Positions 9,532 to 56,623 of a stretch of DNA of 64,000 nucleotides are shown here, piece by piece (position 1 is the stretch's first letter; each line of letters starts with the position of its first letter). A program made the translations under genes and the position numbers. This DNA is from a virus. Location of the stretch: positions 1 to 64,000 of the IMG/VR virus record IMGVR_UViG_3300007513_001761; one strand, given 5' to 3'. The notes under the pieces were generated by a model, which was given only the letters and a program-made list of their open reading frames with translations, did not search any database and was not told where the DNA came from.

Positions 9532-9539
9532 GTAAATAT
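9532..9539 (-). promoter_or_regulatory. candidate late promoter motif ATATTTAC
   Basis: TANTTA core 19 nt before ATG at 9514. Confidence 0.5.
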
Positions 9540-9540
9540 G

Positions 9541-24276: not shown

Positions 24277-26275
24277 ATTCTTCTACTCGGAACTTAAACG
24301 TTTCCCGTTGTTCGGTCCACGCTTGCAACGATGGATCATAAAAGGAAAACCGAAGTCCATACGCATACCCTGGCTCTAACAGATTCATATCCACGTCAAA
24401 GTAATTTCCGGAAATATCATAGGAGAGTCCAGTAGCAATATCCGACCCGGTGCCGTAAGGAATAGCCTCATAGCCATCTACCAATCTAAAAACACGATAG
24501 GAAGCGCTTTGAATTGTTGAGCTTTCTACGGTGGTATTGGCTGTTGTGTAAATCGTAGGTTTCCAATATTTATTTCTAATAAACAAATTAAAGCGCGCAT
24601 TTTCATCGTTTCGATATCGATCTTTTAGATTTGTAATATTCAGATAATACACGGGCTTTTGAATCACTTGGGATGCACTGAAATGTGTAGGGTTAAACGA
24701 AGAAGTGAAAAACTCCACACCGGCCCAAGGGTTGTTTTTTCCACTTCCATCGTGCCATACATCGAAAATTGTCGTAAGCGGAGAAGAAGCTCCAGTAATC
24801 GCAAACGAGGCACTGTAAATTCCAGTGGATACGTGCGCACCCGTCACAACATAGGGGTTGGTGCTATTTGGCACCCAGAGGCGCGGAAGTGTTGTTGGCA
24901 GCGAAATTGCTGCGCGCGTTGCAGCGCTTGAAGACGCGGCTTGTCCGCTTGGTTTGGTGTTATCGTCAGAGCCTGAATAAAAACTCACATAAATGGGGCC
25001 GGTTCCAATCGAAGGAATGTCTCTTAGGGCGCCTCTCACATAGTTGTAAAGGTAGAGGCTATTAATATTATCATTAACGGGGGCCAAAGAACTGCTGTAG
25101 TATGTATCTCCTCTATCATCTTTTACGGTGGAGTCCCACCGCGCTTCAATGGAGGGGCGCATAAAATAATATTGAGTTCCTCGTGCAAAAAACCTCTTCG
25201 TATAGTAAGAAATGGTAGAACCGGTAGGATCCTCTAGCCATCCATTATAAGTCCCATCAGCGCTGTTCGCGTAATATCCCTCATAAGTTCCTGTCAAGTG
25301 TACACCAACGCCATAATTTGCAATGGTTCCTGCAGACCATAACTCTACAAGACCGGTAATATCTATCTCTAGGTCTTCTAATCCAGTAGCAAAAGATTGA
25401 GTATACCATCTCCAAGGATATGCAGCATTCGCTTCAGTAATGTAGTCTCCTCCCACTTTTTCCCATGGAGTTCCGGCACTACCTGCCTGTTGTATTCCCA
25501 ACGAAATGCCGTCCAGTGTTCCCTCTACCGAAGTGCTTGTAACGCCGCCGGCTGTACTAGAGGTAACATATATAACGGCCGAGTCAGTGGGATCTATATT
25601 GGCTGAAAAGGCGCTTAAGCCGTCTACAACGCTATTAAATGCGGCCGCAATGCTGGCTTTGGCTGCAGTGGTTGAGCTTATATCAACCTCTGTCTCAGTG
25701 CCAGTCGCAGATGGTGCCGAATCTCCTGAGCCGTCATTGAACCATAAGTTATACCTATTGGTGCCATCATAAGTAATAATATAGTTTTCTCCAGATCCGG
25801 CGCCGTAATCAGCCAAAGTGTCCGAAGAGAAGGTAACTTTAGTTATTTCGGCTACATTCGTGCTGTTTCTTACCATCCAATTGGAGCCGGCGTTTCCGTG
25901 AGTCAAATCTTTATACGTTTCAAGATCTAAGCCTGTTCCTTCTTGCCAGTCGGCTGATATCGGCTCTACCACCAAGCTATAATCTTCTGGAACTGTTTTA
26001 GAATGAGGAGCGTTATAAAGCTTTAAATAGAAATTAACGCTGCCGCTATCAGGTATCACTCCGTTGGTTCTGTCTGTAGTGATGGAATCGATTGGAAATT
26101 TAATCAAAATTCGGGATAATTCTACAGAGCTTGATGCTTGGCGTCCATATATTGAAAATGTTTCAATAATGTCCGCATAACCCGCATTGGCTCCTGTTGC
26201 TCTCGTGGTGAGATTCGATTTAAAGGCATTAACAATTGTGTTGTCTGCATTAGCTATATATTTTTTAATTGCCAT
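24266..26275 (-). CDS. virion structural protein, DNRLRE-like N-terminal domain
   Basis: ADNTI..ANAG..SRILIKF..FYLKLY..WQEGTG pattern; lies between gp6-like and giant wedge genes. Confidence 0.55.
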   Translation of the reverse strand: MAIKKYIANADNTIVNAFKSNLTTRATGANAGYADIIETFSIYGRQASSSVELSRILIKFPIDSITTDRTNGVIPDSGSVNFYLKLYNAPHSKTVPEDYSLVVEPISADWQEGTGLDLETYKDLTHGNAGSNWMVRNSTNVAEITKVTFSSDTLADYGAGSGENYIITYDGTNRYNLWFNDGSGDSAPSATGTETEVDISSTTAAKASIAAAFNSVVDGLSAFSANIDPTDSAVIYVTSSTAGGVTSTSVEGTLDGISLGIQQAGSAGTPWEKVGGDYITEANAAYPWRWYTQSFATGLEDLEIDITGLVELWSAGTIANYGVGVHLTGTYEGYYANSADGTYNGWLEDPTGSTISYYTKRFFARGTQYYFMRPSIEARWDSTVKDDRGDTYYSSSLAPVNDNINSLYLYNYVRGALRDIPSIGTGPIYVSFYSGSDDNTKPSGQAASSSAATRAAISLPTTLPRLWVPNSTNPYVVTGAHVSTGIYSASFAITGASSPLTTIFDVWHDGSGKNNPWAGVEFFTSSFNPTHFSASQVIQKPVYYLNITNLKDRYRNDENARFNLFIRNKYWKPTIYTTANTTVESSTIQSASYRVFRLVDGYEAIPYGTGSDIATGLSYDISGNYFDVDMNLLEPGYAYGLRFSFYDPSLQAWTEQRETFKFRVEEYEY

Positions 26276-28071
26276 TATCTAACTTTTCCTTTAATATCGG
26301 TTTGGGGGAATTTTATTTCTATAATGGCATTTTGAGGAACAACCAAATAACTTCCATCGGGAGATAGATTGTCATTAATATTAAGCGTAGCATTAGAATA
26401 ATTGGTCCCCGTTTTATTATTTAATGTAACAGACGACACATCCAGAACTCCTGTCACTTTCTTGAGTTCGCTATAAATGTCACTAATATAGATGTGCTCT
26501 CCAATATAAAAGCTTGTTTTATATTTCTCTCTTAGTGCATTCACGCAGTCATCCAGAAGAGTAAACTTGTTAGTGTTGGTTGCAGGACTCACCACAAAAT
26601 CAATACCCAAATTAAGAATGTAAGGGTCCAAAATATCAATAGTATCGTTAATCATTCTATAGTGATTAAGCCAAGTTTTTAAATTATTTTTAATAGTGGT
26701 GTTGGTTGTCGTTAATTTACCAGTCTCATTTTCAGATACCACATACATGTTAAGATTTCTCCTTAGAGAATTAGGATCTTTTTGAACCGAAACCCGTTTA
26801 ATTGAACCGTATTGTGCTGGCATTCGGTAGGCCACATTTTCATAATCCGCCTGGGTAACTGCTCTATTTTGGGTGGGGAAGGTATCAAAAATTCGAAGCT
26901 TAAGCTCTGTCGAACTTGGCTCGGAGACATCTCCCACAATCGGCTCCTCGTTGTTAACCTCGATGGAAGACTGAACTTCGGTTATGGTGGCCGATGAAAG
27001 AACTTCTCTATCCGCAAATTCCAACAATGCACTCACTACTGTGTTTAAACCGTTGGTGGCAATATTGGAATTACCAGCATTCGTCATGCGATATGTAATT
27101 GTCAATGTAGTGTTTGATGGCACAATGCCAAAATTTTCATTTTTAGAAAGTCGTGTCGGATCAAAAGTTGTATCCGTTACATAATCTTTTCCAAAAAGTT
27201 CTAAAGCCACCGCTTGTGGGTTTGCAGCCACATTGGATTCTCCCGATTTTCCAGTTCCAAATTGAAGATAGGTGTTGTTGCGATCTCGGTCAACTACAAA
27301 TTTTCTTGATACCAGATAGGGTTTAAGAATAGAAGGAACATTATCATTTAAAAAGTTACTATTGGCTAGCTCTTTAAACACCATATCTTGAGACAAATAC
27401 CCTACCTCAAAATACTCATTTCCTTCTGTGTCTACAACACTAATAATTTCACTGATGGTTGCAGACGACATCTTAAGGCGCCGAAAGCGCTGATAGGCCC
27501 CTACTTTTAGTTTCTCTTGCCCAAAGCGACCAGATACTACATTTCCATAAGCTTTAATAGCAAAATGTGTAGGAGCGCCAGTAGAAGTATTTACTCTAGC
27601 TACAATAACTGGATTTTTTGGATCTGCAAAATCTACGTTTTCTGTCAATGCAAAACTCAAACCGGTTTCGGAAGTAAATCGGCTTCCTCGTTTTAAAACA
27701 GGTATATATCGCGTATCGGGACCAATACCGGTGGTGGATGCGGGTATTAATACGAAAAGCGACACTTTTCCATAAGTGGAGGCGCGTCCTGTATACTTAT
27801 ATCCTAAGATCCTCCCGTGGCGTAACACATTATTATATTGATAAGCGGTGTCTAGAAAAGTTTCATTAACGTTATAATCTAAGTAAAAAGACATTTGATC
27901 GCCCACATAGGCCACTGCATCCAACATTAACGCCCCGAAGGAAGCTTCACTAAAGTCCTGAAAAGTGTCAGGGTAAAATCTCTCTGCTACCTGGCGCAAT
28001 TCTTTGCGTATTCCTTCGTAATCAGTAGCCGTATAATCGATAGGAACTATCTTTTTTTGTTCATCAGACAT
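26275..28071 (-). CDS. baseplate wedge subunit (T4 gp6 / baseplate J-like)
   Basis: IDYTATDY..FQDFSEASFGALMLDAVAYVGD..SFYLD, LQFGTG, QNRAVTQADY. Confidence 0.9.
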   Translation of the reverse strand: MSDEQKKIVPIDYTATDYEGIRKELRQVAERFYPDTFQDFSEASFGALMLDAVAYVGDQMSFYLDYNVNETFLDTAYQYNNVLRHGRILGYKYTGRASTYGKVSLFVLIPASTTGIGPDTRYIPVLKRGSRFTSETGLSFALTENVDFADPKNPVIVARVNTSTGAPTHFAIKAYGNVVSGRFGQEKLKVGAYQRFRRLKMSSATISEIISVVDTEGNEYFEVGYLSQDMVFKELANSNFLNDNVPSILKPYLVSRKFVVDRDRNNTYLQFGTGKSGESNVAANPQAVALELFGKDYVTDTTFDPTRLSKNENFGIVPSNTTLTITYRMTNAGNSNIATNGLNTVVSALLEFADREVLSSATITEVQSSIEVNNEEPIVGDVSEPSSTELKLRIFDTFPTQNRAVTQADYENVAYRMPAQYGSIKRVSVQKDPNSLRRNLNMYVVSENETGKLTTTNTTIKNNLKTWLNHYRMINDTIDILDPYILNLGIDFVVSPATNTNKFTLLDDCVNALREKYKTSFYIGEHIYISDIYSELKKVTGVLDVSSVTLNNKTGTNYSNATLNINDNLSPDGSYLVVPQNAIIEIKFPQTDIKGKVR

Positions 28072-28088: not shown

Positions 28089-28457
28089 TTAAGTAGTAAT
28101 AACAATAGAATCACTCGCCCCCAAGGATGGAATAGAATAATATATAACCACCCCCAAGATGTTACCATCCCTATCACCACTATCAAATAAAATCTGGTCA
28201 ATCTTTACAACAGGTAAATATCTCCCCACCTGTCCTATAATATTAGTTCTTATGGCTGAGTTGGTTTGTTCCCCAAAACGCCTAAACAAATATTGCATCA
28301 TACCCACACCAAATTCTGGTACCATCACTCGTTCGCCGGGATTAGTTAGAAGAAGCATTCTTAAATTTTGTCTTATTTCACCCAAAATATCGCTTTCCAT
28401 GGTAAAGCCGGTACCCGAATCGTATTCCATGGGTATGCTAGGTCCCCAAAAAGACAT
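28089..28457 (-). CDS. baseplate wedge/sheath initiator (gp25/GPW family)
   Basis: IRQNLRMLLLTNPGERVMVPEFGVG...YLP signature. Confidence 0.9.
   Translation of the reverse strand: MSFWGPSIPMEYDSGTGFTMESDILGEIRQNLRMLLLTNPGERVMVPEFGVGMMQYLFRRFGEQTNSAIRTNIIGQVGRYLPVVKIDQILFDSGDRDGNILGVVIYYSIPSLGASDSIVITT
28090..28097 (-). promoter_or_regulatory. candidate late promoter variant ACTACTTA
   Basis: TANTTA core 19 nt before ATG at 28071, overlapping gp25 stop. Confidence 0.4.
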
Positions 28458-28475: not shown

Positions 28476-28483
28476 TATAAATA
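28476..28483 (-). promoter_or_regulatory. candidate late promoter motif TATTTATA
   Basis: TANTTA core 21 nt before ATG at 28457, followed by GAGG RBS. Confidence 0.55.
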
Positions 28484-28486
28484 TCA

Positions 28487-31400
28487 TCAATCTTGATTTT
28501 CGCACAAAGCGCCTGACGCACTAAACGGATTTGATATCAAACGACGCTTTTGTTTCCATGTTAAGATCCGTTCGCCGCTGGGTAATTTAATCGCTTCGCG
28601 CAAATTCCGAAGATAAACTTGTCCCGGCCCATTGTTCTTACCAGTAATTTCGGCAACATCGAAATCTCTATCATTATAATACGTTTTAAAGAGCCTCTTT
28701 AATCTTGTCTTGGAGCTTCTTAATACGATTTGATCCCATTCGTCCCACTGCATGAAGAAGGGAGACCACACATCTCTATCGGTCGAACTAACCCAGTTCC
28801 CTTCCGAATCCCCAGAAACCTCAATTCCTGTGATTACGCCATCTTCGTCTGACGTTACCTCGGCAGTCATTCCGGGTTTTGTAGTCGGATCAAAGGAGCT
28901 TTTGCCGGCGCGGGCCCAGGATTCATCGTCTGCTACTGTTTTTTCGCCTATGGACATTAAAAACGCTTTATCAACATACATTGCCAACATAGAAGCCATT
29001 TTGCGCACCGGAATAATATATCGAGTCGTAAGCTTAAACTTGTCGTCATTTTTCAAAAGATTGACTAGACATAACAAGCGCTTACTATTTTCATTGATAC
29101 CAACAAAGTCATTGAGCGGGAGATCAAGAGCATCCATCTCTACAGATGTAATTTCATATTTTGTGCCATCCAATATAATAGAGAACCTTAATCCGTAACG
29201 CACCCCCAATTCTCCAGTAATCCCGATAGCTGTTCCATTATCGTCATATACTACTTCCATTGGATTGTCTACACCGGGATATACTTCGGAAAGGAGCGCG
29301 TTTAGATCTGAATTGTCCATAATCTCAGATATAGCGGTGTCATCAGCTAATTTCTCGCCGTTAATACTAATATACTTTTCAATATAAAAGGGTCTGGCGG
29401 GGTCAGCTTCTACTTCACTTTCTCCTAAATCTAGAGTGCTTACGTCTCCAATCTCTACATATATCTTGTCTGTCAGGGGATACAAAGTATCGTGTGCTGT
29501 TGTGTCTGAGTGAGCTTCTCCTACCATATAAACCGGCTCATTATCGTCATTAAGGTGAATGTGATAATATCCAATATATTCTTGTCCCTCGTTTCCATCG
29601 CCGTCGTTATCTTCTCCAATTACAAATTCGCCACCATAGGTATAATATGCCAAATCGCCCACATCATTATAATCGGTAGCAACGGCCGGATCAATAGGCT
29701 CAGTGGGGATATCTATATATGATTCGTTAACGGTACCATCGGGATTCATATTGGCGTTAAGAGTTAAAGAAGAGCCTTGTGTCATGTTGTCTAGCAAATA
29801 ATAATCAAGGTCATAAATATCTGGCGTCCATCCGATGATATCGAGATTTTCAATAATCTTTTCGCTCATAAAGTTTAATTGTTCCATCACCAATTCGGTG
29901 AGTACTATTTTAGCATCTTCTTCAGTTTCTTGAACCGCCTCTAAGTTTTCGTCGGAGCGATAATTTTTAAGGCTTTTGAAAAAAGTAACTTCGTCATCAC
30001 GCTTTGCTTGACGTAAGATATCACGAGTAGGATAAAGATATTCTTCCTGCATATTGTTTAAACGTGTTAAAGCGGCAGTTACATGAAAAGGCGGCTCTAT
30101 CTCTTCTCTTTCAATTCTTTCTCCGTACATCTGTACAGCTTGCTCTAAAAACGCATACCAAAATTCGTTATCTTTAAAGGCTGTGAACAATTCTCTATCA
30201 GCTTCCTGGGGTGCTTTAAAACTACGCTCCATAACTTCAACGATATAAGAGCCATAAATTGCACTAAATACTTCAGGAAAACGCGGCGAAAACTTCGTAA
30301 AAACAGGCATCGCTTTTATAAGCCCCACGCTACAATAAATACGGATAGCTGCTGATATAAGACCTTGCAATAATGCCTTTGAAGAACGATTAAGAATACG
30401 ATCATAAGGCACCTCAAGGACACACTCGGGATCCTGTGACAGCCTAGTGTCTTCTGGCATTGTCGGATAAATTTCATCGATCATTTCTTGTATATCGCCA
30501 AAATCGATTAGGTCTGTATATTTGGGCTTGCAAGGGCTCAGGTCGGGAAATAACACATCCACAAACCCCAGCCAACCTTTATTTTGGAGAGGGGCAACAT
30601 AAACGGCCGGGTTCATATAGTTTCCGCCATAAATTGACGGATCTAGGTAGAATACACGATTTGTGGCACCTTCAATGGTGTAAGTCCCGTCTTCTATTTC
30701 TTGCTGCATTTTGCTGATACCCAATATCATGTCTGAGTTTCTAATATCTCTGGGTTCGAGGTCGTCACCTAATACTTGCGCGTCACCATATAAATCGCCT
30801 CGTTCGGATCCGGCATCCGTATCATCTGCTATCACATATTTTGCATCACTAAAAGACAAGCTATCGAATTGGGCCCCATAATACCACGCGCCCTCGGTGT
30901 TGTCCACATCTGCTATAAGAGTTGCCATGGCAGAAGAAATTTCCCCATATATCTCTTCGCATGCGCTCATAATGGTCGAAGTGTATATCGTTTCGCCATT
31001 ACCCTCTAAAAGCTCTTTCAATAATACATATTGAGGCGCTGTGGCGTTAACGTTGGTTTTATAGTGCCCCTCAAACATAGACATAAAGTCAGCGTACTGT
31101 TCTAAAGTTTCATCACTAATGCCATCAAACGTAGTGTCAATAGCCAAAAATTCATATTCGAGAGCCCTAATGATGCTCTCATCTCCCGGTTCTGCCGTAG
31201 CTAAGGTTCCGTCATCAATATCCTTCTTTCTTTTGGGGTCAAGCATATTGAGAAAACCCGCACCCGGATCAAAGTTCTCATTAGACCTTTCCGAAATCTT
31301 AACTCTAGTGGCGTCTGCGGGACGCGTCGAAACAGTGCCATCCTCATCTTCTACAACGACGCCCACCGACGCATACAATCCGCTACTTTCATCCGGATCA

Positions 31401-34400
31401 TCACCATCCCCTTCTAATTCGTACAAATCCGCAAAAAACACTTCTAAATCAAAACCATACGCATAAGTATCCGAATAATCATCTAGATTGCGAGCATTAT
31501 CATTAAACTCTAAGGTAACGTCGGGTGTCGCTTTGCGCGCCTTGGCCCAGACCTCAAGGGTGTTGTTGTCTTCTCCTTCAAAGTCAGGACGGAACTCAAT
31601 GTTGTAGCCAAATTCTGGCATTTTCAAAAGGTTGATTTTGTTTCGATTAAATGGCCCATATCCGGGCAAATCTTTAAAGTCTTTGGTCACCAGGCGCTCT
31701 TCCGGCTCTATCTCGTTGTTCATATCATAACTAAACGCCAGTAAGCTAAGAGTATCTTGTAAATAGCTTGCAACTTTAAGGGGATATGCGCCTCGTTGCC
31801 GATTGATATCTGGAGGTGACGAAAGAAACGCAGACAAACCTTCAGCGGATTCGAGGGGGGCGGCCTCCAGATCGCTGGCGTCCCAATCACTATAGAAGTC
31901 TACCCTTTTGTTTATATTGCTCGTGGCGCGGTGATGGCGCGTGAGAGGTTGTCCCATTGTATCTGAGAGGATCATGTTCACAAGTCCCCACTTCTTTTTA
32001 GTAGGACCATTGCCAATCATATCTTGAGAGTATGCGATTTTCAAAGTTTCAAGAGAGCCGCCCAGCGTGGCTGACACTGTGTCTGCTACTTCGTCCGGTT
32101 CGTAGGGTAAAATACCGTTGTCACAGCCAGGATCCGAGAGCATCGGTGGAGTATTGTTTTCCAAAAATGGTCCCAACCCTCCCTGAAAAATGTCTCCAAT
32201 GTCTCCTAAATCTTCCAAAGCTTGATCGGTATAGCTTTGACACATCTTTTCGCTCTGTGCTGGTGAAAGCCTTCCTTCTAGAAGTTGCATGCGCATGTTA
32301 CACATTTCTTCCTGTTGTTCCTCGGTTAAACAGAGAGAGGGACTTATTGCCTCTTCGGGAACTTGGTCAAGAGCTTTTTTCATCTCTTCTTTAAAGTCGG
32401 CGGGCATTACATTTCCCATGTTCCTAAAAGTAGCCGCAATCGTGCTAGGACCCTTTAGGCTCGGGCGAAATTGAGGGAACTCGTATTTTACAATATCATC
32501 TACAGCTTTTAAGAACTCTGGTGATGGGTTTCCAAGATAAGCTTCTTGAACTTCTCTAGCTGTCGAATTATTGGAGACCTCTTGTGTAAATCGTTGTACT
32601 TCTTCCGAGTCGGTAAAAGCAGCACCCCCGTTTCCAAAAGATTGAAATAATTCAGTGATTGTAGCATCAAGAGTTTCGTCATCAACATCATCGCCGCAAA
32701 TTGACTCTCTAATTGCATCAGCTACAGTGTTTTGATTGCTAAACGCTGCTGCAGTCATATCACCGACCAATTCTAATGCATTACAAATCGCTTCACTTAA
32801 AATTTCACACAATTTAATCATGAGTAATTCCCAAATTTTAGCGATTAGTTCTGCAATTGCTGCTTTGGCGGCCAACTTTATCCAATACCACAAACTTACA
32901 AACTTATCAAAGGGCGGAATAACAAACTGTGGCCACGCAATTTCATCCATATTCCGACAAATCGGTAAAGACAAACTTTTTATAAAATCAGCAGCGTTGG
33001 GATTAAAAAACGCGGTATTAGGACATGTAAGGGCAGCAAAAATATAACCAATAATTGGGGCGCCCGGAAAGTTGCCTAACATGTCCATTAATGATAATTC
33101 ATCTCCCAAATAAACTTCTAGCAACGCCTGAATATAAGCTTCCATAATGATATCGTTGCTTAGTTGTCCACTAACACTTCCAATGTCCACACTGGGTCCT
33201 AGGGTTCTGCGGTTTTCTTCTACATGAGAAGCCCAACCAGAATACGAAACAGAACCATATGGTCCTTCGGCGCGCGTTGCAAAGTCGCCTTTTTGAACAT
33301 CTGCAGTAGCGGCGGCCCATGGTCCTACTGGCTCTTCATCGCCATAATCGTAGTTTCCTACCACGGCATCGCTAGCCTGCTCGTTTGCTGAAGCAGATGA
33401 GAAAATATCCCCTTCTGAAAGCTTTTCATTCATCTTGTCCGACAACTCTTGTTGTTTATCAGCGGGAAGTCCAACAAACAAATCTCCAAAGTTTTCAATA
33501 GACATTGCTCGCAGTGCGCTTTCAAGCATTTTTCCTAACGCTTGCTCTAAGGTAAGACCTCCAAACAAACATTCGAGCGCTTTAACCATAAGGTCTAAAA
33601 GTCCACACAGTTTTAGGCGATTGAATTTTTCGCGACCACTCTTCCGCTCGTCGCGGTTGCCTTTTCTCTGTTCATTCCAACTTATTGCGGCGTACTTAAC
33701 ACTATTTTCCCCCCCTCTCTCGTAATTGAAAACCCAATTGCAAAAGTCAGCAAACATGTCAGCATCTTGTTGAATCTCTTCTAAGGCTTGTTCTTTGGCC
33801 AAAGTTTTAATTTTAGCTTTGTCTACTTTCCAGATAGATTCACCTGTGGCAACAGTTTTGGGCTCATTCCAGGTTGTAGAATCCTCAGCCGCTGCTGCTA
33901 GAAGCTCGTCAGAAGTCATTTCTCTTTGAACCTGGCTTTCGCTAAGGAGTATTTCCAGTTCTTCTTTTAGTTTTTCCATGTCTTCTGTTGTGTAATTGCA
34001 TGTAAAATCATGGAACATATAAGCTATAGCATCTCCGAGACTAAAAGCTTCATCTAAAATATCCTGACCTAATTCTTTTCCTTCTTCTAAAAGTGCTTCA
34101 GCTATACAACTGCGGCCCGTATGTTCACCCGACGCATCATATTCAGAGTTGGCTGTGTCGTAAATTTCAGGATATGTATATGTTTTAAGAAAATCTAACC
34201 AATCTGTGGGTTCTCGCGCTGTTAATTCCTCTACCATGTCGCGTGCCTGAACAAAATAAGCTACGGCTGTGGAATCAGACCACGCTGAAGTTGATACCAA
34301 TAATTCATCCAGGGCAGTGATTATAATTGGCTCTTCTACACATCCTTCAGCTTCAATTTCAAGTTCTTTTAAAACATACTCGCTAGTAAATGTAAAAGTA

Positions 34401-35239
34401 ATGCTACTAACGGCCCTGTTCCACGTAAAGGTATCAGAAAAAGGGCCCCCGGTGCCCACTATGTTATAGTTGCGCTTGTTAAGAAAAGCATCCAATTCCG
34501 GCAAAAGCTTTCCAACTTCAGAATTTTTACTACTCCAACCATAATCACCATATAAATCTAACGAAAACACAGAGTTATCGCTTAAAAATTTCAAATTACC
34601 TTGCCCTGTGCCACGGTAAACATTTAGATAGCGCGTATAAAGGAAGAGAGATTTGCGCACTTTCATTAACAATTCAAACATCTCTGACGACGCATACCAC
34701 ACTTCTATGTCGCCATCTTCATTTTCGGCGCCTTCTTCTTCAGAATCAGCCGCGTCTATAGCTTCTAAATTTTCATAAGGCACAGAATAAAGTAATTTTA
34801 ATCTGCTCATGGAACGCAATCCGACATAATAGTCAGTATGCTCTACCACTTCTTTCAAAATATCTATAGATGCCTGAGAGGTGTCTTTATTATAAGCCAG
34901 CAATAAGGCGGCAAGAGCGGCTTCCTCATATGTTCTCTGCAAATTTGCTACTTCCAAATCAGCTTGCGTATTTACTTCTTCTTCAGATAAGGACTCTATA
35001 TCTTCCATAAGCCCTAAGACGCTATTTTCCGCTGTTTCATAGGTAATTTGATACATACACCTTCTTTCATTTAAAAAAGGAGTATATTCGTCTAAAGTGC
35101 GCCAATTAGGAAGAATGGCAGCGCTATTGGGAATACACGGCGGGCACTCATCGGGAGCAACGGTTTCTATCGGCTCACAAACATCATTGAGTCCATCGCC
35201 GTTCGCATCTTGAAATGGTAAAAATTTGGATTCAGACAT
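28487..35239 (-). CDS. very large acidic hypothetical protein, probable baseplate/tail component (2250 aa)
   Basis: Between spike-like and gp25 genes; N-terminal DANGDGLNDVC calcium-loop-like motif; helical middle region. Confidence 0.55.
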   Translation of the reverse strand: MSESKFLPFQDANGDGLNDVCEPIETVAPDECPPCIPNSAAILPNWRTLDEYTPFLNERRCMYQITYETAENSVLGLMEDIESLSEEEVNTQADLEVANLQRTYEEAALAALLLAYNKDTSQASIDILKEVVEHTDYYVGLRSMSRLKLLYSVPYENLEAIDAADSEEEGAENEDGDIEVWYASSEMFELLMKVRKSLFLYTRYLNVYRGTGQGNLKFLSDNSVFSLDLYGDYGWSSKNSEVGKLLPELDAFLNKRNYNIVGTGGPFSDTFTWNRAVSSITFTFTSEYVLKELEIEAEGCVEEPIIITALDELLVSTSAWSDSTAVAYFVQARDMVEELTAREPTDWLDFLKTYTYPEIYDTANSEYDASGEHTGRSCIAEALLEEGKELGQDILDEAFSLGDAIAYMFHDFTCNYTTEDMEKLKEELEILLSESQVQREMTSDELLAAAAEDSTTWNEPKTVATGESIWKVDKAKIKTLAKEQALEEIQQDADMFADFCNWVFNYERGGENSVKYAAISWNEQRKGNRDERKSGREKFNRLKLCGLLDLMVKALECLFGGLTLEQALGKMLESALRAMSIENFGDLFVGLPADKQQELSDKMNEKLSEGDIFSSASANEQASDAVVGNYDYGDEEPVGPWAAATADVQKGDFATRAEGPYGSVSYSGWASHVEENRRTLGPSVDIGSVSGQLSNDIIMEAYIQALLEVYLGDELSLMDMLGNFPGAPIIGYIFAALTCPNTAFFNPNAADFIKSLSLPICRNMDEIAWPQFVIPPFDKFVSLWYWIKLAAKAAIAELIAKIWELLMIKLCEILSEAICNALELVGDMTAAAFSNQNTVADAIRESICGDDVDDETLDATITELFQSFGNGGAAFTDSEEVQRFTQEVSNNSTAREVQEAYLGNPSPEFLKAVDDIVKYEFPQFRPSLKGPSTIAATFRNMGNVMPADFKEEMKKALDQVPEEAISPSLCLTEEQQEEMCNMRMQLLEGRLSPAQSEKMCQSYTDQALEDLGDIGDIFQGGLGPFLENNTPPMLSDPGCDNGILPYEPDEVADTVSATLGGSLETLKIAYSQDMIGNGPTKKKWGLVNMILSDTMGQPLTRHHRATSNINKRVDFYSDWDASDLEAAPLESAEGLSAFLSSPPDINRQRGAYPLKVASYLQDTLSLLAFSYDMNNEIEPEERLVTKDFKDLPGYGPFNRNKINLLKMPEFGYNIEFRPDFEGEDNNTLEVWAKARKATPDVTLEFNDNARNLDDYSDTYAYGFDLEVFFADLYELEGDGDDPDESSGLYASVGVVVEDEDGTVSTRPADATRVKISERSNENFDPGAGFLNMLDPKRKKDIDDGTLATAEPGDESIIRALEYEFLAIDTTFDGISDETLEQYADFMSMFEGHYKTNVNATAPQYVLLKELLEGNGETIYTSTIMSACEEIYGEISSAMATLIADVDNTEGAWYYGAQFDSLSFSDAKYVIADDTDAGSERGDLYGDAQVLGDDLEPRDIRNSDMILGISKMQQEIEDGTYTIEGATNRVFYLDPSIYGGNYMNPAVYVAPLQNKGWLGFVDVLFPDLSPCKPKYTDLIDFGDIQEMIDEIYPTMPEDTRLSQDPECVLEVPYDRILNRSSKALLQGLISAAIRIYCSVGLIKAMPVFTKFSPRFPEVFSAIYGSYIVEVMERSFKAPQEADRELFTAFKDNEFWYAFLEQAVQMYGERIEREEIEPPFHVTAALTRLNNMQEEYLYPTRDILRQAKRDDEVTFFKSLKNYRSDENLEAVQETEEDAKIVLTELVMEQLNFMSEKIIENLDIIGWTPDIYDLDYYLLDNMTQGSSLTLNANMNPDGTVNESYIDIPTEPIDPAVATDYNDVGDLAYYTYGGEFVIGEDNDGDGNEGQEYIGYYHIHLNDDNEPVYMVGEAHSDTTAHDTLYPLTDKIYVEIGDVSTLDLGESEVEADPARPFYIEKYISINGEKLADDTAISEIMDNSDLNALLSEVYPGVDNPMEVVYDDNGTAIGITGELGVRYGLRFSIILDGTKYEITSVEMDALDLPLNDFVGINENSKRLLCLVNLLKNDDKFKLTTRYIIPVRKMASMLAMYVDKAFLMSIGEKTVADDESWARAGKSSFDPTTKPGMTAEVTSDEDGVITGIEVSGDSEGNWVSSTDRDVWSPFFMQWDEWDQIVLRSSKTRLKRLFKTYYNDRDFDVAEITGKNNGPGQVYLRNLREAIKLPSGERILTWKQKRRLISNPFSASGALCENQD

Positions 35240-35270: not shown

Positions 35271-36311
35271 TTATGTTATGTTAACATTTCGACTGCATAT
35301 ATAGCGACTCGCGTTAGGATCAGTGTAATGTTGTCGCCAAGCCAATATCTGCCCTTGTTGAGACCATGCTGGGCCCGAGCCCTGGATGTTACATGCTGCG
35401 AGCGCGCTGGCTAAAGCGGCGGTTTGTCCGCCGGCGACCATGACCGGGTTTGTTCCCACAACCCCAATTATTGCCTGTTGAACAAGATTCATTGTAAGAG
35501 CCACTCCAGCTATAGAATCGACAATCGCTGCCAACTCTTTCAACGCCTGAAGAAGGTTTTCTCCCATAACTGCTGGCTGTAAGTAATTTAAGTGAGGATC
35601 ATGATCTGGAAAGAAAATCTTTCCAATCTCCAATATGGCTTTTGGAATTAAAAGTTCGCGACCAGCGGCATTGTTGCCGGCGATCAAATCAATAGTGGCT
35701 GCCTGTTCTATGCTGCCTCCTTTAGAGTTTGTTTCGCCCAAAAGACCCAGACCTTTGGCACCTTGTGTGCGTCCAGTTACAATTTTTACGCCTTCGTTTC
35801 CGAAGATGCGCACCTTATCAGCTTTCATGCCCACGGCCGATGAGGGTTCTTCCGGATCTCCCGTTTTACGTGCAATTCCAAAATTCGTGTCTATTGTGGT
35901 AAGAGTACTAATATAAATGCGAGCCGCGTCGGCTACAAAATTACGATTAACAATCATTCCATCACAGGGTCCCTTAGAACCACGAGATTTGGCCGCCAGA
36001 CCGACGACTAAATCGATAGTATCGCCAACGCCAAGGGCGCCGAGTCCCGAAGCTTCGGTAGAAGGGCGATCTAATCCGAAGATTAAATGCGCATTATTAT
36101 GAGACATCACCTTTTCGCCCTGGGCCGCATTGAATGTGATGAAGGGTTGAATAGGTGGGGTATTCATCAACCCACCTGTTGCTGTGTTAACAGGTGTACC
36201 TTGATCCATCAAGTCTTGAGGTGTTGCTGGTACCTCAGACTCCCCAGTCCCTTCCGGACATCTCTCAAATGTGTCTTTGTTGAAAAGTTTTCGCTTGCCT
36301 TTTGATGCCAT
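35271..36311 (-). CDS. baseplate central spike-like protein (gp5 C-terminal type, no OB domain)
   Basis: Short beta-strand runs (IDLVVG, AARIYIS, AVGMKADKVRIFGNEGVKIVTG, IDLIAG), QPAVMGENL and SRNVNIT ending; position before gp25. Confidence 0.55.
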   Translation of the reverse strand: MASKGKRKLFNKDTFERCPEGTGESEVPATPQDLMDQGTPVNTATGGLMNTPPIQPFITFNAAQGEKVMSHNNAHLIFGLDRPSTEASGLGALGVGDTIDLVVGLAAKSRGSKGPCDGMIVNRNFVADAARIYISTLTTIDTNFGIARKTGDPEEPSSAVGMKADKVRIFGNEGVKIVTGRTQGAKGLGLLGETNSKGGSIEQAATIDLIAGNNAAGRELLIPKAILEIGKIFFPDHDPHLNYLQPAVMGENLLQALKELAAIVDSIAGVALTMNLVQQAIIGVVGTNPVMVAGGQTAALASALAACNIQGSGPAWSQQGQILAWRQHYTDPNASRYICSRNVNIT

Positions 36312-36327: not shown

Positions 36328-36335
36328 TATAAATA
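36328..36335 (-). promoter_or_regulatory. candidate late promoter motif TATTTATA
   Basis: TANTTA core 19 nt before ATG at 36311, followed by GGGAG RBS. Confidence 0.55.
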
Positions 36336-36362: not shown

Positions 36363-37682
36363 TTATTCATAGTTTTTACACACATTAGTGGACGGATCTG
36401 ACCATTTTTTACACACAGCGCATGCAGCGTGAGATTTACAAAAATCCTCAACTGACCAAAATGAATCTAAATACCTTCCAAAGCTTATTTGCCCTTGAGA
36501 ACACAAATAGCCGGGGCCTTTTACCCATGAATTAAGGGCAGTCGTATAGTTCCAAACGTCTTCTTTAGAAGTACTAGATAGCCCTTCTATTTCGCTAGAA
36601 TAAGTTCCGCCTTTTCCATGAAGTATCCAGCCCGCTACCGCTAATCCTGTTCTGTCGGCGCCGTGTTTACAGTGTACTAAAACGTTCCCTTTTGCAAATT
36701 CTTTATTAAACGCACTAACCGACTCCTGGAAGCCTTGCCCCTTGATACATCCTTGATGGGCTGACATTTTCTTATATTCAATTTTTTTGCCGGCTGTTTT
36801 TTTATCTAAATATTCGATGTAAGCCTCTTCTATTTCCATCGTGATGCAGGTTGCCATCTGCGGATCCCATCCATATTCGCTATCCAAATCGTCGCGATTA
36901 AGACGAATAAATGTTGTAATATTATCTGTTTCAACCATGTATTTTATTTCACCCAATGTGGGCTGCTTATATCTATAGTTGTTGTTTCCTATCGCTAGAT
37001 AATTACCACTTGGTTTTTTTGCAGTGACAGAATCAAAATTCAAAACACCAGGCGGCACTGTAGCTGGACATTTGCCACCATCGGGGCGCTGTCCTGGGGC
37101 GGCCGTGTCTTGTACGGGATCATAACTCTTCAAGCGGGCAATCGTATTGATCAAGAATTTACCGCTCAGCGGCTCACACTGGGGCTCTTTTGGATCTCTT
37201 AAGTTGGCGCGCTCAATGAGCCGAGTTACAATGCCATGTTGAGAGTTTACTGTGTTTGTTTCTCCGTTCATATTTAAGGTTATTTCTACTATGTCGTTTT
37301 GTCGTATAGGAGAATCAGTAGAGGTTTGGTAGTCGGCAGACGTTACACACAAAGTATGCAATTTAATCAATTTAACGGCTTCCGCAATATTGCTAGTGGA
37401 ATCAAGATTACAGGGGTTTGGCAAATAATGATGCGGGCTTTTCTCGTAAAGATCATCCTTTATTCTCACTCTTATAACATAGCGTCCTATTTGAGCATCT
37501 CCAGTATTTCGGCCAGTTCCTGTATATCTATCTAAGTCGCGTTGAGAGAGAGGGAGGGCATCCGTAAGCGCTACACCTTTGAACACCTTAATTTCTCCTC
37601 GTTTTGCATTAAGCTGATTTTGAGATGCCCACATCAACAATTCTAAACGCATACGAGGCGTTGTAAATGTAGTTTTATCCAT
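36363..37682 (-). CDS. shared gp5-OB-like N-domain fused to dual-specificity/tyrosine phosphatase
   Basis: VLVHCKHGADRTG CX5R P-loop (~36645-36674), NYRYKQP and ITTFIRL motifs; N-terminus paralogous to next two genes; start likely at TAATG overlap 37682 (track gives 37688). Confidence 0.8.
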   Translation of the reverse strand: MDKTTFTTPRMRLELLMWASQNQLNAKRGEIKVFKGVALTDALPLSQRDLDRYTGTGRNTGDAQIGRYVIRVRIKDDLYEKSPHHYLPNPCNLDSTSNIAEAVKLIKLHTLCVTSADYQTSTDSPIRQNDIVEITLNMNGETNTVNSQHGIVTRLIERANLRDPKEPQCEPLSGKFLINTIARLKSYDPVQDTAAPGQRPDGGKCPATVPPGVLNFDSVTAKKPSGNYLAIGNNNYRYKQPTLGEIKYMVETDNITTFIRLNRDDLDSEYGWDPQMATCITMEIEEAYIEYLDKKTAGKKIEYKKMSAHQGCIKGQGFQESVSAFNKEFAKGNVLVHCKHGADRTGLAVAGWILHGKGGTYSSEIEGLSSTSKEDVWNYTTALNSWVKGPGYLCSQGQISFGRYLDSFWSVEDFCKSHAACAVCKKWSDPSTNVCKNYE

Positions 37683-38917
37683 TAACATGGCGGATCCAAT
37701 TTGCTATGTCCAAGCGACATGCTTATATAATCAGCGCGGGTGTCAATCGAGAAATCACCACCTGAGTTTTGATCGATGAATGTTTGTCTATCGCGCCCGG
37801 ACTTGAGCGATGCCCAATCATCAGCCAAAGAAAAACTGTCTGGCTTACCAATTGCCCGTGGCCAAAATACATACATATATGCATCCCCTTGATTGGCAAT
37901 GGCGCGGCCTTTCGGTTTATCAAAGTATTGCTCTACAAGCTCTAGTTGTTGATCCCAATTCATCGCATATACCTTAGTCTGTGCAGCTAATCTGTCAGCA
38001 TCCGAAAAGGGTCGAGAATATCCTTGCAGTCCTGCTGATGTGTCTGGCATAAACTGTATTAAACCAACAGCACATTTAGTCAAACGTGTAGAATGATCAG
38101 AATAGCGGCCTTCACAGCCGATATTTATCTCTTGAGGATCAAAGCCACTCTCGCCATTGATAATGTTAGCCAGCCAACCTGGATCAAAGTTAGCACTAAT
38201 ATTATTGGCAACTTTTACAATTCCGTCTGCCTGGTGTTGGCTCAGCCCATATGCTTTCATCAAATCTGCGGCTGTACGGTGGGAGGCTTTTCCGGAAAGA
38301 GAGCATTTAGTAGTTACAGGTCCGGACGAGTGATCGGCTAGCAACGTTAGTTCTGAAGTGTCGAACTTGCCTTGCAAGCTCTCACAGAGGTTTTGTAAAA
38401 AAGGATCGTACTTTGCTTTGGAAACAATTTGAATTATTTCTCCATGATCTGTATGAATATTACCTCGTGAATCGACGGTCATAGTGACTCTTACTTTGTC
38501 ACCTCTGCGCACTATAGAATCACTACTTATGCTAAAGTCTTCAGACGTTACATATGTTGTAAACATTTTTATCATCTTAATAGTCGCGACTAGATCTGGA
38601 GTTTCTCCAATCCCACAAGGATCTATTAAAAAGCGATGAGGGTTTTCTATAGGCTTCAACATATCTCCATTAGCGTTCCCAACGATCATGGCTTTAATGA
38701 TATAACGTCCAATGGTAGCTGCGTCTATTGCGCCTATTGGTCCATTTTTGGTATAATTGCGCTGCTGCTCTCGGCTTAATGGAACAGCGTCTGTTAGTGC
38801 TATAGCAGTAAATTCACGAATTTCGCCACGTCCACGTCGATTAAATCGTATTTCAAATTTATCCGCAATCGATAGGCGCAGTGCTTCTTCGGGAGTGGTG
38901 GGGTAGTCAACAGACAT
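37682..38917 (-). CDS. shared gp5-OB-like N-domain fused to lytic transglycosylase/lysozyme-like domain
   Basis: IINGESGFDP (catalytic Glu-Ser), AVGLIQFMP, QQLELVEQYF, YMYVFWP motifs. Confidence 0.85.
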   Translation of the reverse strand: MSVDYPTTPEEALRLSIADKFEIRFNRRGRGEIREFTAIALTDAVPLSREQQRNYTKNGPIGAIDAATIGRYIIKAMIVGNANGDMLKPIENPHRFLIDPCGIGETPDLVATIKMIKMFTTYVTSEDFSISSDSIVRRGDKVRVTMTVDSRGNIHTDHGEIIQIVSKAKYDPFLQNLCESLQGKFDTSELTLLADHSSGPVTTKCSLSGKASHRTAADLMKAYGLSQHQADGIVKVANNISANFDPGWLANIINGESGFDPQEINIGCEGRYSDHSTRLTKCAVGLIQFMPDTSAGLQGYSRPFSDADRLAAQTKVYAMNWDQQLELVEQYFDKPKGRAIANQGDAYMYVFWPRAIGKPDSFSLADDWASLKSGRDRQTFIDQNSGGDFSIDTRADYISMSLGHSKLDPPC

Positions 38918-40069
38918 TTAGCCTTCCACCATGGGGCCTTCGGCTGCATCAGTCCCTGCTGGGCTCGTGGGATCTGTAGAAGCAACAGCGGGTGCAGTCG
39001 GATCATCACATTTTTGAATTGCCTTAATAAAGGGAGTTGCGTCCATGGGACTAGAACCTTTCCAAAGCTCCATATGTAAATGAGGGCCGGTACCCACGCC
39101 GGTATTTCCAACCTTTCCAATAAGATCTCCGCGACTCACGAGGTCTCCCGCCTTAATATGTGTGGGCTTCTGTGCCATGTGAAAATATTTCGTTTTATAG
39201 CCACTCCCGAGTCCTGTGTGTTTAATGTTAACGGAATTGCCTTGGCGCGTCTTGCCATCCCATGCATAAACTTTATCAATTACTCCATCAGCGGCTGCAT
39301 ATATTGGCGTGCCCGTCGAAGCTCCCCAGTCGGTGCCCTGGTGTTCTTCGCCGCCTCTAGGTCCATAGGGGCTCGTAATGGGATATGAATCATTCATTAA
39401 TGGATGCATCAAATAGAACTCAGAGTATTCTTCTGCACACACTTCTGCGTCTATCGTTATAGACGGAATAGATGTCTCTAACAACTCAATCGTATTAACA
39501 GTGAATTGTCCCTGTAAGCTTTCACATGAATCAAATTGCGGACGTGCAGGATCTGCGGCTTCTACCACTCCTAGAATTTCTCCTTGCTCCATGATCAAAG
39601 CTCCATCGCCACCTACCTGTAAAGTCACTTTAATGATATCATTCCTGTTTATGTTCATCCCGGAACTTATATCGTAGTCTGTGCTGGTGATGAATGTCGG
39701 AAACATTTTAGCTAATGCGATTGAAGTGGCTATATCTGGCGTTTTTCCCAGGCTACAAGGATCGACCAAATAACTGTGTGGGTTTTCAATAAACGGCAAT
39801 CGGTTACCAATCGCATCTCCAACGATAATGGCCTTTACCGCAGAGCGGGCTATTTTGGAATCATCCGGAGAGCTTGTCGTCGAAACAGAGGCTAGCCCAT
39901 ATCGTTCCAACATTTTCTTGCGCGAAAGTGGCACACCGTCGGTAATTGCACGGGCAGTGAACTCTCGAATTTCGCCTGGGAACCCAACGGTTGCTTTGTT
40001 TTGTTTTTGCGCGGCGTAGAGTCCTATCTTGGCCCTAGCCATTGTAAAATCACTATAATCAAGTGGCAT
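38918..40069 (-). CDS. shared gp5-OB-like N-domain fused to M23 peptidase
   Basis: ITSPYGPR, HQGTD (HxxxD), GTPIYAAADG, YFHM, TGPHLHME (HxH); RBS spacing favours ATG at 40069 (track gives 40075). Confidence 0.9.
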   Translation of the reverse strand: MPLDYSDFTMARAKIGLYAAQKQNKATVGFPGEIREFTARAITDGVPLSRKKMLERYGLASVSTTSSPDDSKIARSAVKAIIVGDAIGNRLPFIENPHSYLVDPCSLGKTPDIATSIALAKMFPTFITSTDYDISSGMNINRNDIIKVTLQVGGDGALIMEQGEILGVVEAADPARPQFDSCESLQGQFTVNTIELLETSIPSITIDAEVCAEEYSEFYLMHPLMNDSYPITSPYGPRGGEEHQGTDWGASTGTPIYAAADGVIDKVYAWDGKTRQGNSVNIKHTGLGSGYKTKYFHMAQKPTHIKAGDLVSRGDLIGKVGNTGVGTGPHLHMELWKGSSPMDATPFIKAIQKCDDPTAPAVASTDPTSPAGTDAAEGPMVEG

Positions 40070-40364
40070 CCACATTATCTCCTTGAATTAAATCAAAGAG
40101 AGAGTTTTTGTCATCTTCGGTAAGCTCTACCTCTCGCCCAGAAGCTTTGTGTTTAAGACCGATAAGCTTTACTAGCTGTTCATTGGAACGTTGCATTGTT
40201 TCAATGTGTTTGGCGGCTACAGGGCTCAGATATTTGTTTTGTTCTGCATCTTTGGCAATGGCGTTAGCAATCTCATTTAAAAACTCTCGGGCCACTTTGC
40301 GGTCATTACGAATGTTGCCAAGCGCCTCTTCCATAAGTTTTTTTAAATCTTCTTGTTTGCTCAT
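40059..40364 (-). CDS. hypothetical helical protein (weakly terminase-small-subunit-like)
   Basis: 101 aa, coupled to sigma gene; amphipathic helices only. Confidence 0.6.
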   Translation of the reverse strand: MSKQEDLKKLMEEALGNIRNDRKVAREFLNEIANAIAKDAEQNKYLSPVAAKHIETMQRSNEQLVKLIGLKHKASGREVELTEDDKNSLFDLIQGDNVDAT

Positions 40365-41062
40365 AATACGCCACTCTCCCAGTCTTGCTTGAACAGGTAA
40401 TACTTTTTTCTAAATTTCTTTAGAGAATTAACAATCTGTTTGGTGTTAAGTCCAGTAATCTCTCTCAAGTATAGGTAAATAGCTTTTTTGTTAAAAATTT
40501 CTATATCCTCTTTCGACTCAAATAAGATAATAATGGCTTTATAAACTTTAAGATCATTTTCCTTCATTTGGGAAGTGTCCCAAGAACTAAGTTCTGTGTG
40601 GAATGAGAGCCAGAATTCTTCGTCTTCTCTCTCGGTCACATAAGATTCATTCGTCGATAGATACTCTTCTTCGTAAGCTTTTGAGACATTTTCATAATCA
40701 ACCTCGCGCATGCTGCGTTTTTGCTGCTGCTTGACTTTATGAATGAACCAATTCTTAGTAATAACAGAAAAATAGGAAAAGGCTTTGGAGCCTTTAGTGG
40801 GGTCGTATTTATCTAAAATGGTCATAAGCCATATCTTACATTCGTCGCGCAAATAGTCGCAATTAGGAAGATTCGTAAATTTATAAGTAAAAACTATTTT
40901 ATCCACCATTTCGTTAAAAGCAGGCTGGATGAGGTTTACATATAACTCAGTTCTTTCTTTTATGCAGTCTGTGTTGCTATATCGGATAATGGCATTTTCA
41001 TGGACAACGGTAAAATAGTGATTACTCTTTTTGGCCGCTCTCTTCTTCTTCGTTTTCTTCAT
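40361..41062 (-). CDS. phage sigma factor (T4 gp55-like late sigma)
   Basis: NHYFT, LRDECKIWLMTILDKYDPTKGSKAFSYFSVITKNWFI region-2-like motif; C-terminal HTH-like IYLYLREITGLNTKQI. Confidence 0.75.
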   Translation of the reverse strand: MKKTKKKRAAKKSNHYFTVVHENAIIRYSNTDCIKERTELYVNLIQPAFNEMVDKIVFTYKFTNLPNCDYLRDECKIWLMTILDKYDPTKGSKAFSYFSVITKNWFIHKVKQQQKRSMREVDYENVSKAYEEEYLSTNESYVTEREDEEFWLSFHTELSSWDTSQMKENDLKVYKAIIILFESKEDIEIFNKKAIYLYLREITGLNTKQIVNSLKKFRKKYYLFKQDWESGVL

Positions 41063-41393
41063 CAATGAGTTCAGGTTCCTTGCTATCGTCTGTAATTTCG
41101 GGCGCTTCTGGTTCTGTCAACGAGTAAATATACTCGAAAGTTTCTAGTTGTTCGTTAAAAGACACAGCATGGTGTAGAAGATGTTCTAAGGTTTGATCTC
41201 CATAGAATGCATCCAAATCATATACAGACTTAACATGTTTTGCGAATGCATCTATCATATGTTGTAAATCTCCTAGTTCTTCTGACACCGAGAGAAGTTG
41301 CACGATGGCCGAGCGAGCATAAATAAAAATACCCACATTAAGAAACAGCGATAACGTTAGCACTGCAGATAGTATTATTTCAAGTCGGCTCAT
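41022..41393 (-). CDS. hypothetical protein with N-terminal TM helix
   Basis: Hydrophobic residues 5-26, acidic tail. Confidence 0.6.
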   Translation of the reverse strand: MSRLEIILSAVLTLSLFLNVGIFIYARSAIVQLLSVSEELGDLQHMIDAFAKHVKSVYDLDAFYGDQTLEHLLHHAVSFNEQLETFEYIYSLTEPEAPEITDDSKEPELIDEENEEEESGQKE

Positions 41394-41655: not shown

Positions 41656-41880
41656 TTACTTTTTCACCAAGTTTTCTAAATCTTCGTTAGAAACTTCCGC
41701 ATTGTTAGTTACCCTAACTGTGGGTGGGTTTCTAACAACAAGCCCATCTTGGGTCTCAACCAAGTCAAATCCTTGTAAAATTGGCACAATGTCCAATTCA
41801 TTTAACAAAGATTCCTGGAGGGCCATCATAATAGCCCCCATTGCTTGGTTAGACAATTTCAATTCTTTAGCTGTTGTCAT
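41656..41880 (-). CDS. hypothetical protein
   Basis: Start moved to MTTAKELK (41880) behind an AAGGAG RBS. Confidence 0.65.
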   Translation of the reverse strand: MTTAKELKLSNQAMGAIMMALQESLLNELDIVPILQGFDLVETQDGLVVRNPPTVRVTNNAEVSNEDLENLVKK

Positions 41881-41881
41881 T

Positions 41882-42259
41882 TTAATCTCCTTTTTCGATT
41901 CTGTAGCTGTCGCTATCAAAGTGTTGTGTTGAGAACTCAAAAAGTTCTGTGTCTTGCAGAGCAATCATTCTGTGGCGTAATCCGCGATATACATGAAAGT
42001 TGTCGCCGGCCTCTAAAACAATCTCCTCTGCGTCTTCTAATTTATCTCCATCTGAGTATTTTACCAGAAGTCTTCCAGATTGAACATAAAAAACCTCGTC
42101 CTTCAATTTGTGAAAGTGCCATGAGCACTGCTTGTCCTTCTCAAAGAACAACAGCTTTCCGCAATATTCCTCACAATTTACTATCCATCTTTCCCAGCCC
42201 CAGCCTTTATCAACGTGGGTCATCGGCAAAGAAGTCGTCTGCTTTAATTCCTTTGTCAT
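41882..42259 (-). CDS. cupin-domain sugar isomerase-like protein
   Basis: KGWGWE, CSWHFHKLKDEVFYV, HRM cupin motifs; true start may be 42223. Confidence 0.8.
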   Translation of the reverse strand: MTKELKQTTSLPMTHVDKGWGWERWIVNCEEYCGKLLFFEKDKQCSWHFHKLKDEVFYVQSGRLLVKYSDGDKLEDAEEIVLEAGDNFHVYRGLRHRMIALQDTELFEFSTQHFDSDSYRIEKGD

Positions 42260-42539
42260 CTATGTAAAAATCTCCTGAAGGTTTTCCTAATATCAATTTG
42301 TGGTACTTTGCTTCCCACTTTTTTAATTGTCTTTCTGTTAAATCGTGAAAATCATTGTGGGCTCTGAATCGGTTTCCGTGGTGTCTTCCCATTCCTCGCG
42401 CAGTAAAGTATACTATATTATGCCCTTCTTTATACAAAGTGTTAATTTTTTTAATTCGTTCCTCGAAAGGTTTTGCTTTTCTATAGTCTCCGTCTGTTAA
42501 TGTACAGATGGTGCCGTCGATATCAAACACATATGTCAT
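42210..42539 (-). CDS. small HAD-superfamily phosphatase (capsule-biosynthesis type)
   Basis: FDIDGTIC, YFTARG, GKP, YIDDK. Confidence 0.85.
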   Translation of the reverse strand: MTYVFDIDGTICTLTDGDYRKAKPFEERIKKINTLYKEGHNIVYFTARGMGRHHGNRFRAHNDFHDLTERQLKKWEAKYHKLILGKPSGDFYIDDKGIKADDFFADDPR

Positions 42540-56611: not shown

Positions 56612-56623
56612 TTCTTGCCTAGG

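Follow-up and report, generated by a model that had tools for sequence, protein, structure and literature searches.

Three coupled genes with unlike C-termini

The window analyzed here covers positions 1–64,000 of a 113-kb virus record in IMG/VR (IMGVR_UViG_3300007513_001761). The record comes from an uncultured marine phage of the contractile-tail type and is estimated to be 61% complete. All genes in the window lie on the minus strand. Among them are three adjacent genes, referred to as P-A, P-B, and P-C, whose products share an N-terminal module (N-module) and differ in the C-terminal domain, or head, that follows it. P-A (38918..40075) encodes 385 amino acids, with a module consisting of a helix and an OB domain at residues 1 to approximately 195 and an M23 metallopeptidase at residues 244–345. 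The probable start of P-A is position 40069, a third-codon ATG that matches the start of its closest database relative (P0002). P-B (37682..38917; 411 amino acids) combines the module, at residues 1 to approximately 190, with a predicted lysozyme-like lytic transglycosylase, and P-C (36363..37688; 441 amino acids) combines it, at residues 1 to approximately 185, with a cysteine-phosphatase-like domain and a Cys-rich tail. The TAA stop codon of P-A runs directly into the ATG of P-B, and P-B and P-C overlap at the stop codon of the former and the start of the latter (ATGTTAATG). These open reading frames agree with the three adjacent, coupled genes described in a first-pass annotation of the same DNA.

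The first approximately 190 residues of the three products align throughout, with identities to P-A of 41% (P-B) and 34% (P-C). Each of the sequence blocks quoted in the annotation as common to the N-domains was found, and all of them align among the three proteins. A six-frame HMMER search of the 113-kb record with the P-B N-domain recovered exactly three copies, the other two at E values of 4e-39 and 1e-27. Judged by sequence, the similarity between the copies is far beyond chance. It ends just past the motif CExLxGxF (residues 184–191 in P-A, 178–185 in P-B, and 171–178 in P-C), where the annotation had also placed its limit.

The head of P-A can be assigned firmly to the M23 peptidases from its profile match and motifs. 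It matched PF01551 at 89.2 bits (cut-off, 28.7) and carries both zinc motifs, HxxxD in HQGTD (residues 245–249; 39329–39343) and HxH in HLH (332–334), the latter inside the matched catalytic segment HLHME (332–336; 39068–39082). The head of P-B is well supported as a lytic transglycosylase or lysozyme-like domain, a predicted chemistry. It scored 20.0 bits against the Pfam SLT family, under the cut-off of 21.3, and it matched a solved lytic transglycosidase (9udh_A, 2e-9) and PHROG 196, annotated as "baseplate hub" (3.8e-14). Its motifs are a Glu-Ser pair in GESGF (255–259; 38141–38155), GLIQF (285–289), and AYMYVF (346–351). The head of P-C contains the P-loop HCKHGADRTG (339–348; 36645–36674), which has the form HCX5R(S/T) and is unchanged in eight relatives with 27–85% identity. 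All Pfam matches of this head were below the cut-off (DSPc, 22.7 bits vs. 33.5; Y_phosphatase3, 21.6 vs. 22.2). In the PDB, the P-C family profile matched best to the baculovirus RNA 5′-phosphatase 1yn9 (7e-5) and then to capping-enzyme triphosphatases (0.01), over a span of only approximately 37 residues. Because the matches to protein tyrosine and dual-specificity phosphatases were subthreshold but the P-loop is invariant, and given the short PDB match, we refer to this head as cysteine-phosphatase-like. Thus, of the three enzymes that the annotation had named, the M23 peptidase is solid, the transglycosylase is good, and the CX5R phosphatase stands at the motif level.

Fold of the N-module and its place among baseplate genes

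The modeled part of the P-B N-module (38339..38917) was predicted with AlphaFold2 from an alignment of 149 relatives (pLDDT 75). The model contains a helix (residues 9–20) and strands at residues 32–40, 72–81, 120–124, 141–148, and 158–166, which form an OB barrel with inserted helices. Foldseek returned weak matches only, and the recognized ones were all OB proteins. With VIA-align, the highest scores were those of IF1 and eIF1A (Z 6–7; IF1 up to 7.0), followed by the P1 baseplate protein 9vzk_q (Z 5.6), T4 gp5 (1k28_A; Z 5.5, root-mean-square deviation 4.1, 95 residues superposed onto gp5 residues 6–121), and the A-1(L) protein 8kea_D (Z 5.2, root-mean-square deviation 6.2, 105 residues, N-terminal helix included). 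VgrG1 (Z 4.7 for the OB region) and the spikes of phiKZ, Mu, KP1, AFP, PVC, and R2 pyocin were matched at Z 4.2–4.7. The OB fold that had been proposed for the N-domain was therefore supported by the model and by match lists whose recognized entries are OB proteins only. As modeled, the N-module is an N-terminal helix followed by a five-stranded OB barrel, the layout found in spike N-termini. In the spike of A-1(L), an N-terminal helix precedes an OB domain and a beta domain, and the helix grips the tape measure (PMC10966104).

The near-invariant residues of the module (P-B numbering) are F36, A38, I78, P93, H94, C101, and C178. One His and two Cys, H94, C101, and C178 (window positions approximately 38384–38638), are near-invariant in 150 family members and belong to the PH..L.DPC loop and the CxxLxxxF joint. 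Given this conservation, they might bind a metal, or form a disulfide, at the hinge of head exchange.

The order of genes around the module was the same in more than 100 marine viral loci, and it was identical in each related locus inspected: a gp55-like sigma factor, a protein of approximately 100 amino acids, the OB-enzyme gene or genes, a 346-amino-acid family, a giant protein of approximately 2000–2500 amino acids, gp25, and gp6. In the window, the series is headed by the gp55-like late sigma factor (40361..41065), recognized by synteny and a weak match to phrog_234 (4.8e-4), and by a conserved helical protein of approximately 100 amino acids (40059..40364), recognized by synteny, which lies between the sigma gene and P-A. 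P-C is followed by the 346-amino-acid protein (35271..36311), a 2250-amino-acid protein (28487..35239), a gp25/gpW-type baseplate wedge protein (28089..28457), and a gp6/gpJ-type baseplate wedge protein (26275..28071). The 2250-amino-acid protein has no PHROG or Pfam match and is syntenic in all relatives (1985–2523 amino acids). Beyond the gp25-like and gp6-like genes, further very large proteins are encoded downstream. In T4, gene 5 lies immediately ahead of genes 6–8. The trio thus sits in a baseplate module at the position of T4 gene 5, with gp25-like and gp6-like genes downstream, and this agrees with its earlier description as a set of tail-tip genes. Complete relatives (187–203 kb) have a tail sheath gene, and no recognizable spike or hub OB profile was found in them besides the family OB domain. 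Three complete genomes have a single OB copy genome-wide.

Based on fold, synteny, and domain content, we infer that the trio probably represents gp5-like penetration enzymes that are carried in the virion at the baseplate center and have polymorphic heads. Their seat at the three-fold axis, their action during entry, and their oligomeric state are likewise inferred. The helix and OB module would seat the proteins in the hub, as it does in the central spikes T4 gp5, A-1(L) gp25, Mu gp45, and VgrG, and a short linker would then lead to the enzyme where those spikes go on into a beta-helix. Once the tail contracts, the enzymes would attack the host envelope locally: P-A would cleave the peptide bridges of peptidoglycan and P-B its glycan strands, and the target of P-C would be a phosphate ester or anhydride of an envelope or host substrate, which it would cleave or remove.

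Several results weigh against a gp5-like role. Generic OB folds equal or exceed the spike OB domains in structural score, with IF1 at Z 7.0; thus, the fold alone cannot place the N-module on the tail axis, and the scores of the model lie in the range that supports a common fold only. Gp5_OB (PF06714) and Phage_base_V (PF04717) did not match P-A, P-B, or P-C at E ≤ 0.1 or the 113-kb record at E ≤ 1. Across 120 relatives, 54 families matched (E ≤ 1), and the 25 of these that were listed included neither profile. The exception was one isolated Phage_base_V match (E 0.02) within a single family member (L067). Alignment of the N-domain profile with T4 gp5 by hhalign gave a probability of 0.1%. No beta-helix or prism follows the OB domain; the enzyme domain begins 10–50 residues on, and relatives without an enzyme terminate at 183–213 amino acids. 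No hub (gp27/gpD) or tape-measure gene was recognized beside the trio, and Pfam hub and sheath profiles had no match in the 61%-complete record. Neither the trio nor the N-domain nor the 346-amino-acid protein had a counterpart among GenBank phages at the DNA or protein level, and there is no cultured relative. Finally, the phosphatase assignment of P-C has motif-level support, from approximately 40 residues around the P-loop. The kinship with gp5, VgrG, and gpV that had been suggested for the N-domain is weakly supported: the gp5 OB domain superposes over 95 residues, whereas IF1 scores higher and no profile match was obtained. The strand described as GRVRVRV-like aligned to gp5 residues 27–43 at P = 0.42, which is not significant.

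With hhalign, the profiles of the N-domain and the 346-amino-acid protein gave nothing against T4 gp53, 5, 5.1, 5.3, 5.4, 6, 7, and 8. When PDB sequences were searched with the N-domain profile, the matches were at chance level only, the ESM Atlas gave no usable match to the N-domain, and BFVD gave unnamed family members only (e.g., "Peptidase M23B, uncultured marine virus").

The high scores of generic OB folds are also what would be expected if the module were an adaptor that attached the enzymes away from the spike seat, for example to the 346-amino-acid protein, to the protein of approximately 2250 amino acids, or within the tail lumen, where they would be ejected cargo, with a likeness to spikes that reflects only the common OB fold. 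The OB domain without a subsequent beta-helix fits such an adaptor, as does the position of the OB gene next to the 346-amino-acid gene in all 71 IMG/VR loci that have an OB gene and in the metagenome loci; moreover, neither the 346-amino-acid protein nor the giant protein has a known fold or family. However, the order of helix and OB domain and their N-terminal position match those of solved central spikes, complete relatives have no other recognizable spike candidate, and the limit of three copies per locus (see below) fits a three-fold seat. We consider the adaptor role unlikely.

The 346-amino-acid family has more than 200 marine homologs and occurs on more than 560 IMG/VR contigs. The OB gene lies directly upstream of it in 71 of the 71 IMG/VR loci with an OB gene, mostly with a gap of <100 nucleotides, and OB genes likewise abut it in metagenome loci; nine further IMG/VR loci of this family had too little upstream sequence or no upstream match. 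The model of the protein (pLDDT 74) is beta-rich at residues 57–248 and has a hydrophobic helical hairpin at 250–329 and a conserved C-terminal strand. Family motifs are TIDLVVGR, DAARIYIS, KADxVRIIGRxGVKIVTG, IDLIAGNN, and a C-terminal ICSRNVxxT. Foldseek found nothing with this model, there was no family match, and VIA-align matched only the hairpin, to generic coiled coils. The idea that this product is a recognizable spike onto which the N-module docks gained no support, given a model without an informative fold match. Because its gene always comes next after the OB-enzyme genes, the protein might belong to the needle or act on membranes. A complex prediction for the N-module with the 346-amino-acid family scored 0.00 in a run without controls, and it informs neither way.

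Other features of the region were also observed. The approximately 100-amino-acid protein at 40059–40364 directly follows the sigma gene in all related loci and ends in an acidic tail that contains SLFDLIQG; it may resemble T4 gp33, which co-activates late transcription and has a tail that binds the clamp. In the window, 15 copies of the octamer TATAAATA/TATTTATA were counted, where 4.5 are expected, and two copies (36328–36335 and 28476–28483; gene strand, TATTTATA) lie approximately 20 nucleotides upstream of the 346-amino-acid gene and the gp25-like gene. Given this enrichment and these positions, the octamer may be a late-promoter-like element. A second giant open reading frame (14578–24276, minus strand; 3232 amino acids) is located in the baseplate or fiber region and has no PHROG or Pfam match. 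Sugar-nucleotide modification genes (aminotransferase-like, epimerase-like, and kinase-like) occupy approximately 41880–57560 on the minus strand, directly upstream of the late module.

Head exchange and copy number in the carrier family

An exhaustive search with the N-domain profile yielded 250 sequences, each representing a cluster at 50% identity. In nearly all of the 150 that were listed, the module was N-terminal, and the C-termini fell into at least 34 unrelated classes. The named classes are M23, VanY/M15, Amidase_2, Phage_lysozyme2, Muramidase, DUF2272, SLT, PTP-like, and GDSL-like; about half of the classes are unnamed. The variable C-termini that the first-pass annotation had anticipated in relatives were thus found, and because the same N-domain is joined to many different C-termini, the system is polymorphic.

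On a tree of 206 N-domains, head type required 92 changes, compared with a minimum of 16 and a mean of 106 after shuffling. Heads have therefore been exchanged almost freely relative to the carrier. Well-supported branches alone imply at least 15 separate placements of M23. The module therefore behaves as a carrier with swappable heads, in which unrelated C-termini are exchanged independently of carrier phylogeny. Recombination just past CxxLxxxF would exchange the head and leave the conserved carrier in place. P-A, P-B, and P-C each have their own orthologs, and these bear other heads: M15_4, Amidase_2, or unnamed heads in the orthologs of P-B, and no head in the positional ortholog of P-C in two loci (L010 and L092). 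In another locus (L028), a pair of very recent duplicates (7162–8382 and 8407–9867) has carriers that are 0.12 substitutions per site apart and two unlike heads, one of an unnamed class and one of M23.

Domain shuffling is typical of endolysins, most of the heads are classical peptidoglycan hydrolases, and the PHROG labels of the M23 part are mostly "endolysin." The proteins would then be soluble modular endolysins, absent from the virion, in which the OB domain binds the cell wall and the catalytic domain contributes to lysis at the end of infection. This is very improbable, because the genes have the same fixed place in every locus, with the late sigma gene on one side and the gp25/gp6 baseplate genes on the other, and there is no holin-like or spanin-like neighbor. 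In addition, the heads include phosphatase-like, GDSL-like, and many unnamed classes, enzyme-less copies have been retained, and the matches of the P-B head include the "baseplate hub" PHROG and relatives annotated as "Phage tail lysozyme."

Copy number was determined in 58 nonidentical loci with enough upstream sequence, using the 346-amino-acid family gene as an anchor together with a metagenome scan. One OB gene was present in 45 loci, two in eight, and three in five; no locus had more. Copies within one locus never repeated a head class. In at least eight lineages, two copies were mutually nearest relatives, so duplication has recurred. The three-copy arrays formed three separate clades, within which positional orthologs were subsequently retained. 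All 45 single-copy genes encode 360–570 amino acids, whereas bare or short copies (206–267 amino acids) were observed only in arrays; one array (L100:119-2577) consists of two bare carriers (211 and 213 amino acids) and one VanY-like copy. The ancestral state would be one gene per genome, and the lineage of the window would descend from an old triplication, after which the three copies retained unlike heads.

The simplest account of a ceiling of three copies, complementary heads, and bare copies confined to arrays is that P-A, P-B, and P-C form one 1:1:1 heterotrimer at the three-fold axis, so that each virion would combine peptidase, glycan-cutting, and phosphatase activities. This possibility sharpens the gp5-like interpretation and does not oppose it; such a complex would be the phage equivalent of a mixed VgrG trimer. 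The translational coupling of the trio fits equimolar synthesis, the three-copy state arose in three separate clades that kept positional orthologs, and bare copies stand only beside others, as if a bare OB subunit filled a slot in a mixed trimer. We nevertheless hold this proposal to be doubtful. Single-gene loci predominate (45 of 58, and three complete genomes are single-copy); thus, homotrimers must work, and heterotrimers are not a family-wide feature. The eight two-copy loci cannot yield a 1:1:1 complex, and with only 13 multicopy loci, the absence of four-copy arrays carries little statistical weight. In its most general form, which is likewise doubtful, the baseplate center would be a heterotrimer of three OB carriers with different enzymes or none, having arisen from a homotrimeric ancestor on three or more independent occasions. 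It would include a cysteine phosphatase whose target is either a phosphate linkage of the envelope or, once the enzyme has been ejected, a host molecule.

Relation to known spikes and significance

Evolved VgrG proteins, such as Vibrio cholerae VgrG1 and VgrG3, consist of a conserved spike module with variable C-terminal effectors, and several paralogs encoded by one genome can mix in a single trimer. The OB-enzyme family shares with them the combination of a conserved module and variable C-termini. In VgrG, however, the effector is preceded by a gp27-like hub part and a beta-helix, whereas the trio has only a helix and an OB domain and belongs to a phage baseplate. T4 gp5 (PDB 1K28) resembles the trio in that an N-terminal OB domain is followed by a peptidoglycan-cutting enzyme and in that its gene lies just before gp6-type wedge genes. 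It differs in having a C-terminal beta-helix needle and in being a single-gene homotrimer with one fixed enzyme; the trio lacks a beta-helix and detectable sequence similarity to gp5, and its family has many alternative enzymes and up to three paralogs.

Two further phages combine activities at the center of the baseplate. In Staphylococcus phage 812, the spike gp112 has an OB domain at its beginning and a putative phosphodiesterase "petal" at its end, and the hub gp110 carries a CHAP domain (PMC13433997); phosphate-ester and peptidoglycan enzymes are thus combined there. Unlike the trio, phage 812 has one spike gene, with a prism, a coiled coil, and a knob between the OB domain and the enzyme, and its enzymes are parts of different structural proteins and not of paralogous carriers. 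The spike gp25 of the Anabaena myophage A-1(L) has an N-terminal helix and OB domain like the trio, and its baseplate center has two hydrolytic activities (PMC10966104; PDB 8KEA). Both enzymes, however, are domains of the hub gp15, and the spike has no enzyme.

Enzymes on spikes or hubs were therefore already known from T4 gp5, phage 812, and A-1(L), as were swappable heads on VgrG proteins. New are an abundant, undescribed family of carriers without a beta-helix, near-free exchange of heads at one joint, a recurrent growth to at most three unlike paralogs, and a cysteine-phosphatase-like head. The carrier family has no Pfam or PHROGs entry and no cultured member, and it is common in marine viromes (250 cluster representatives, with the partner gene on more than 560 IMG/VR contigs). 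It provides a natural catalog of the enzymes that phages mount at the point of entry, including phosphatase-like and lipase-like ones, with a sharply defined recombination joint. The three-copy ceiling, the unlike heads, and the bare carriers restricted to arrays make the long-standing question of mixed trimers in phage spikes testable. If a heterotrimer is formed, mixed VgrG spikes would have their first counterpart in a phage.

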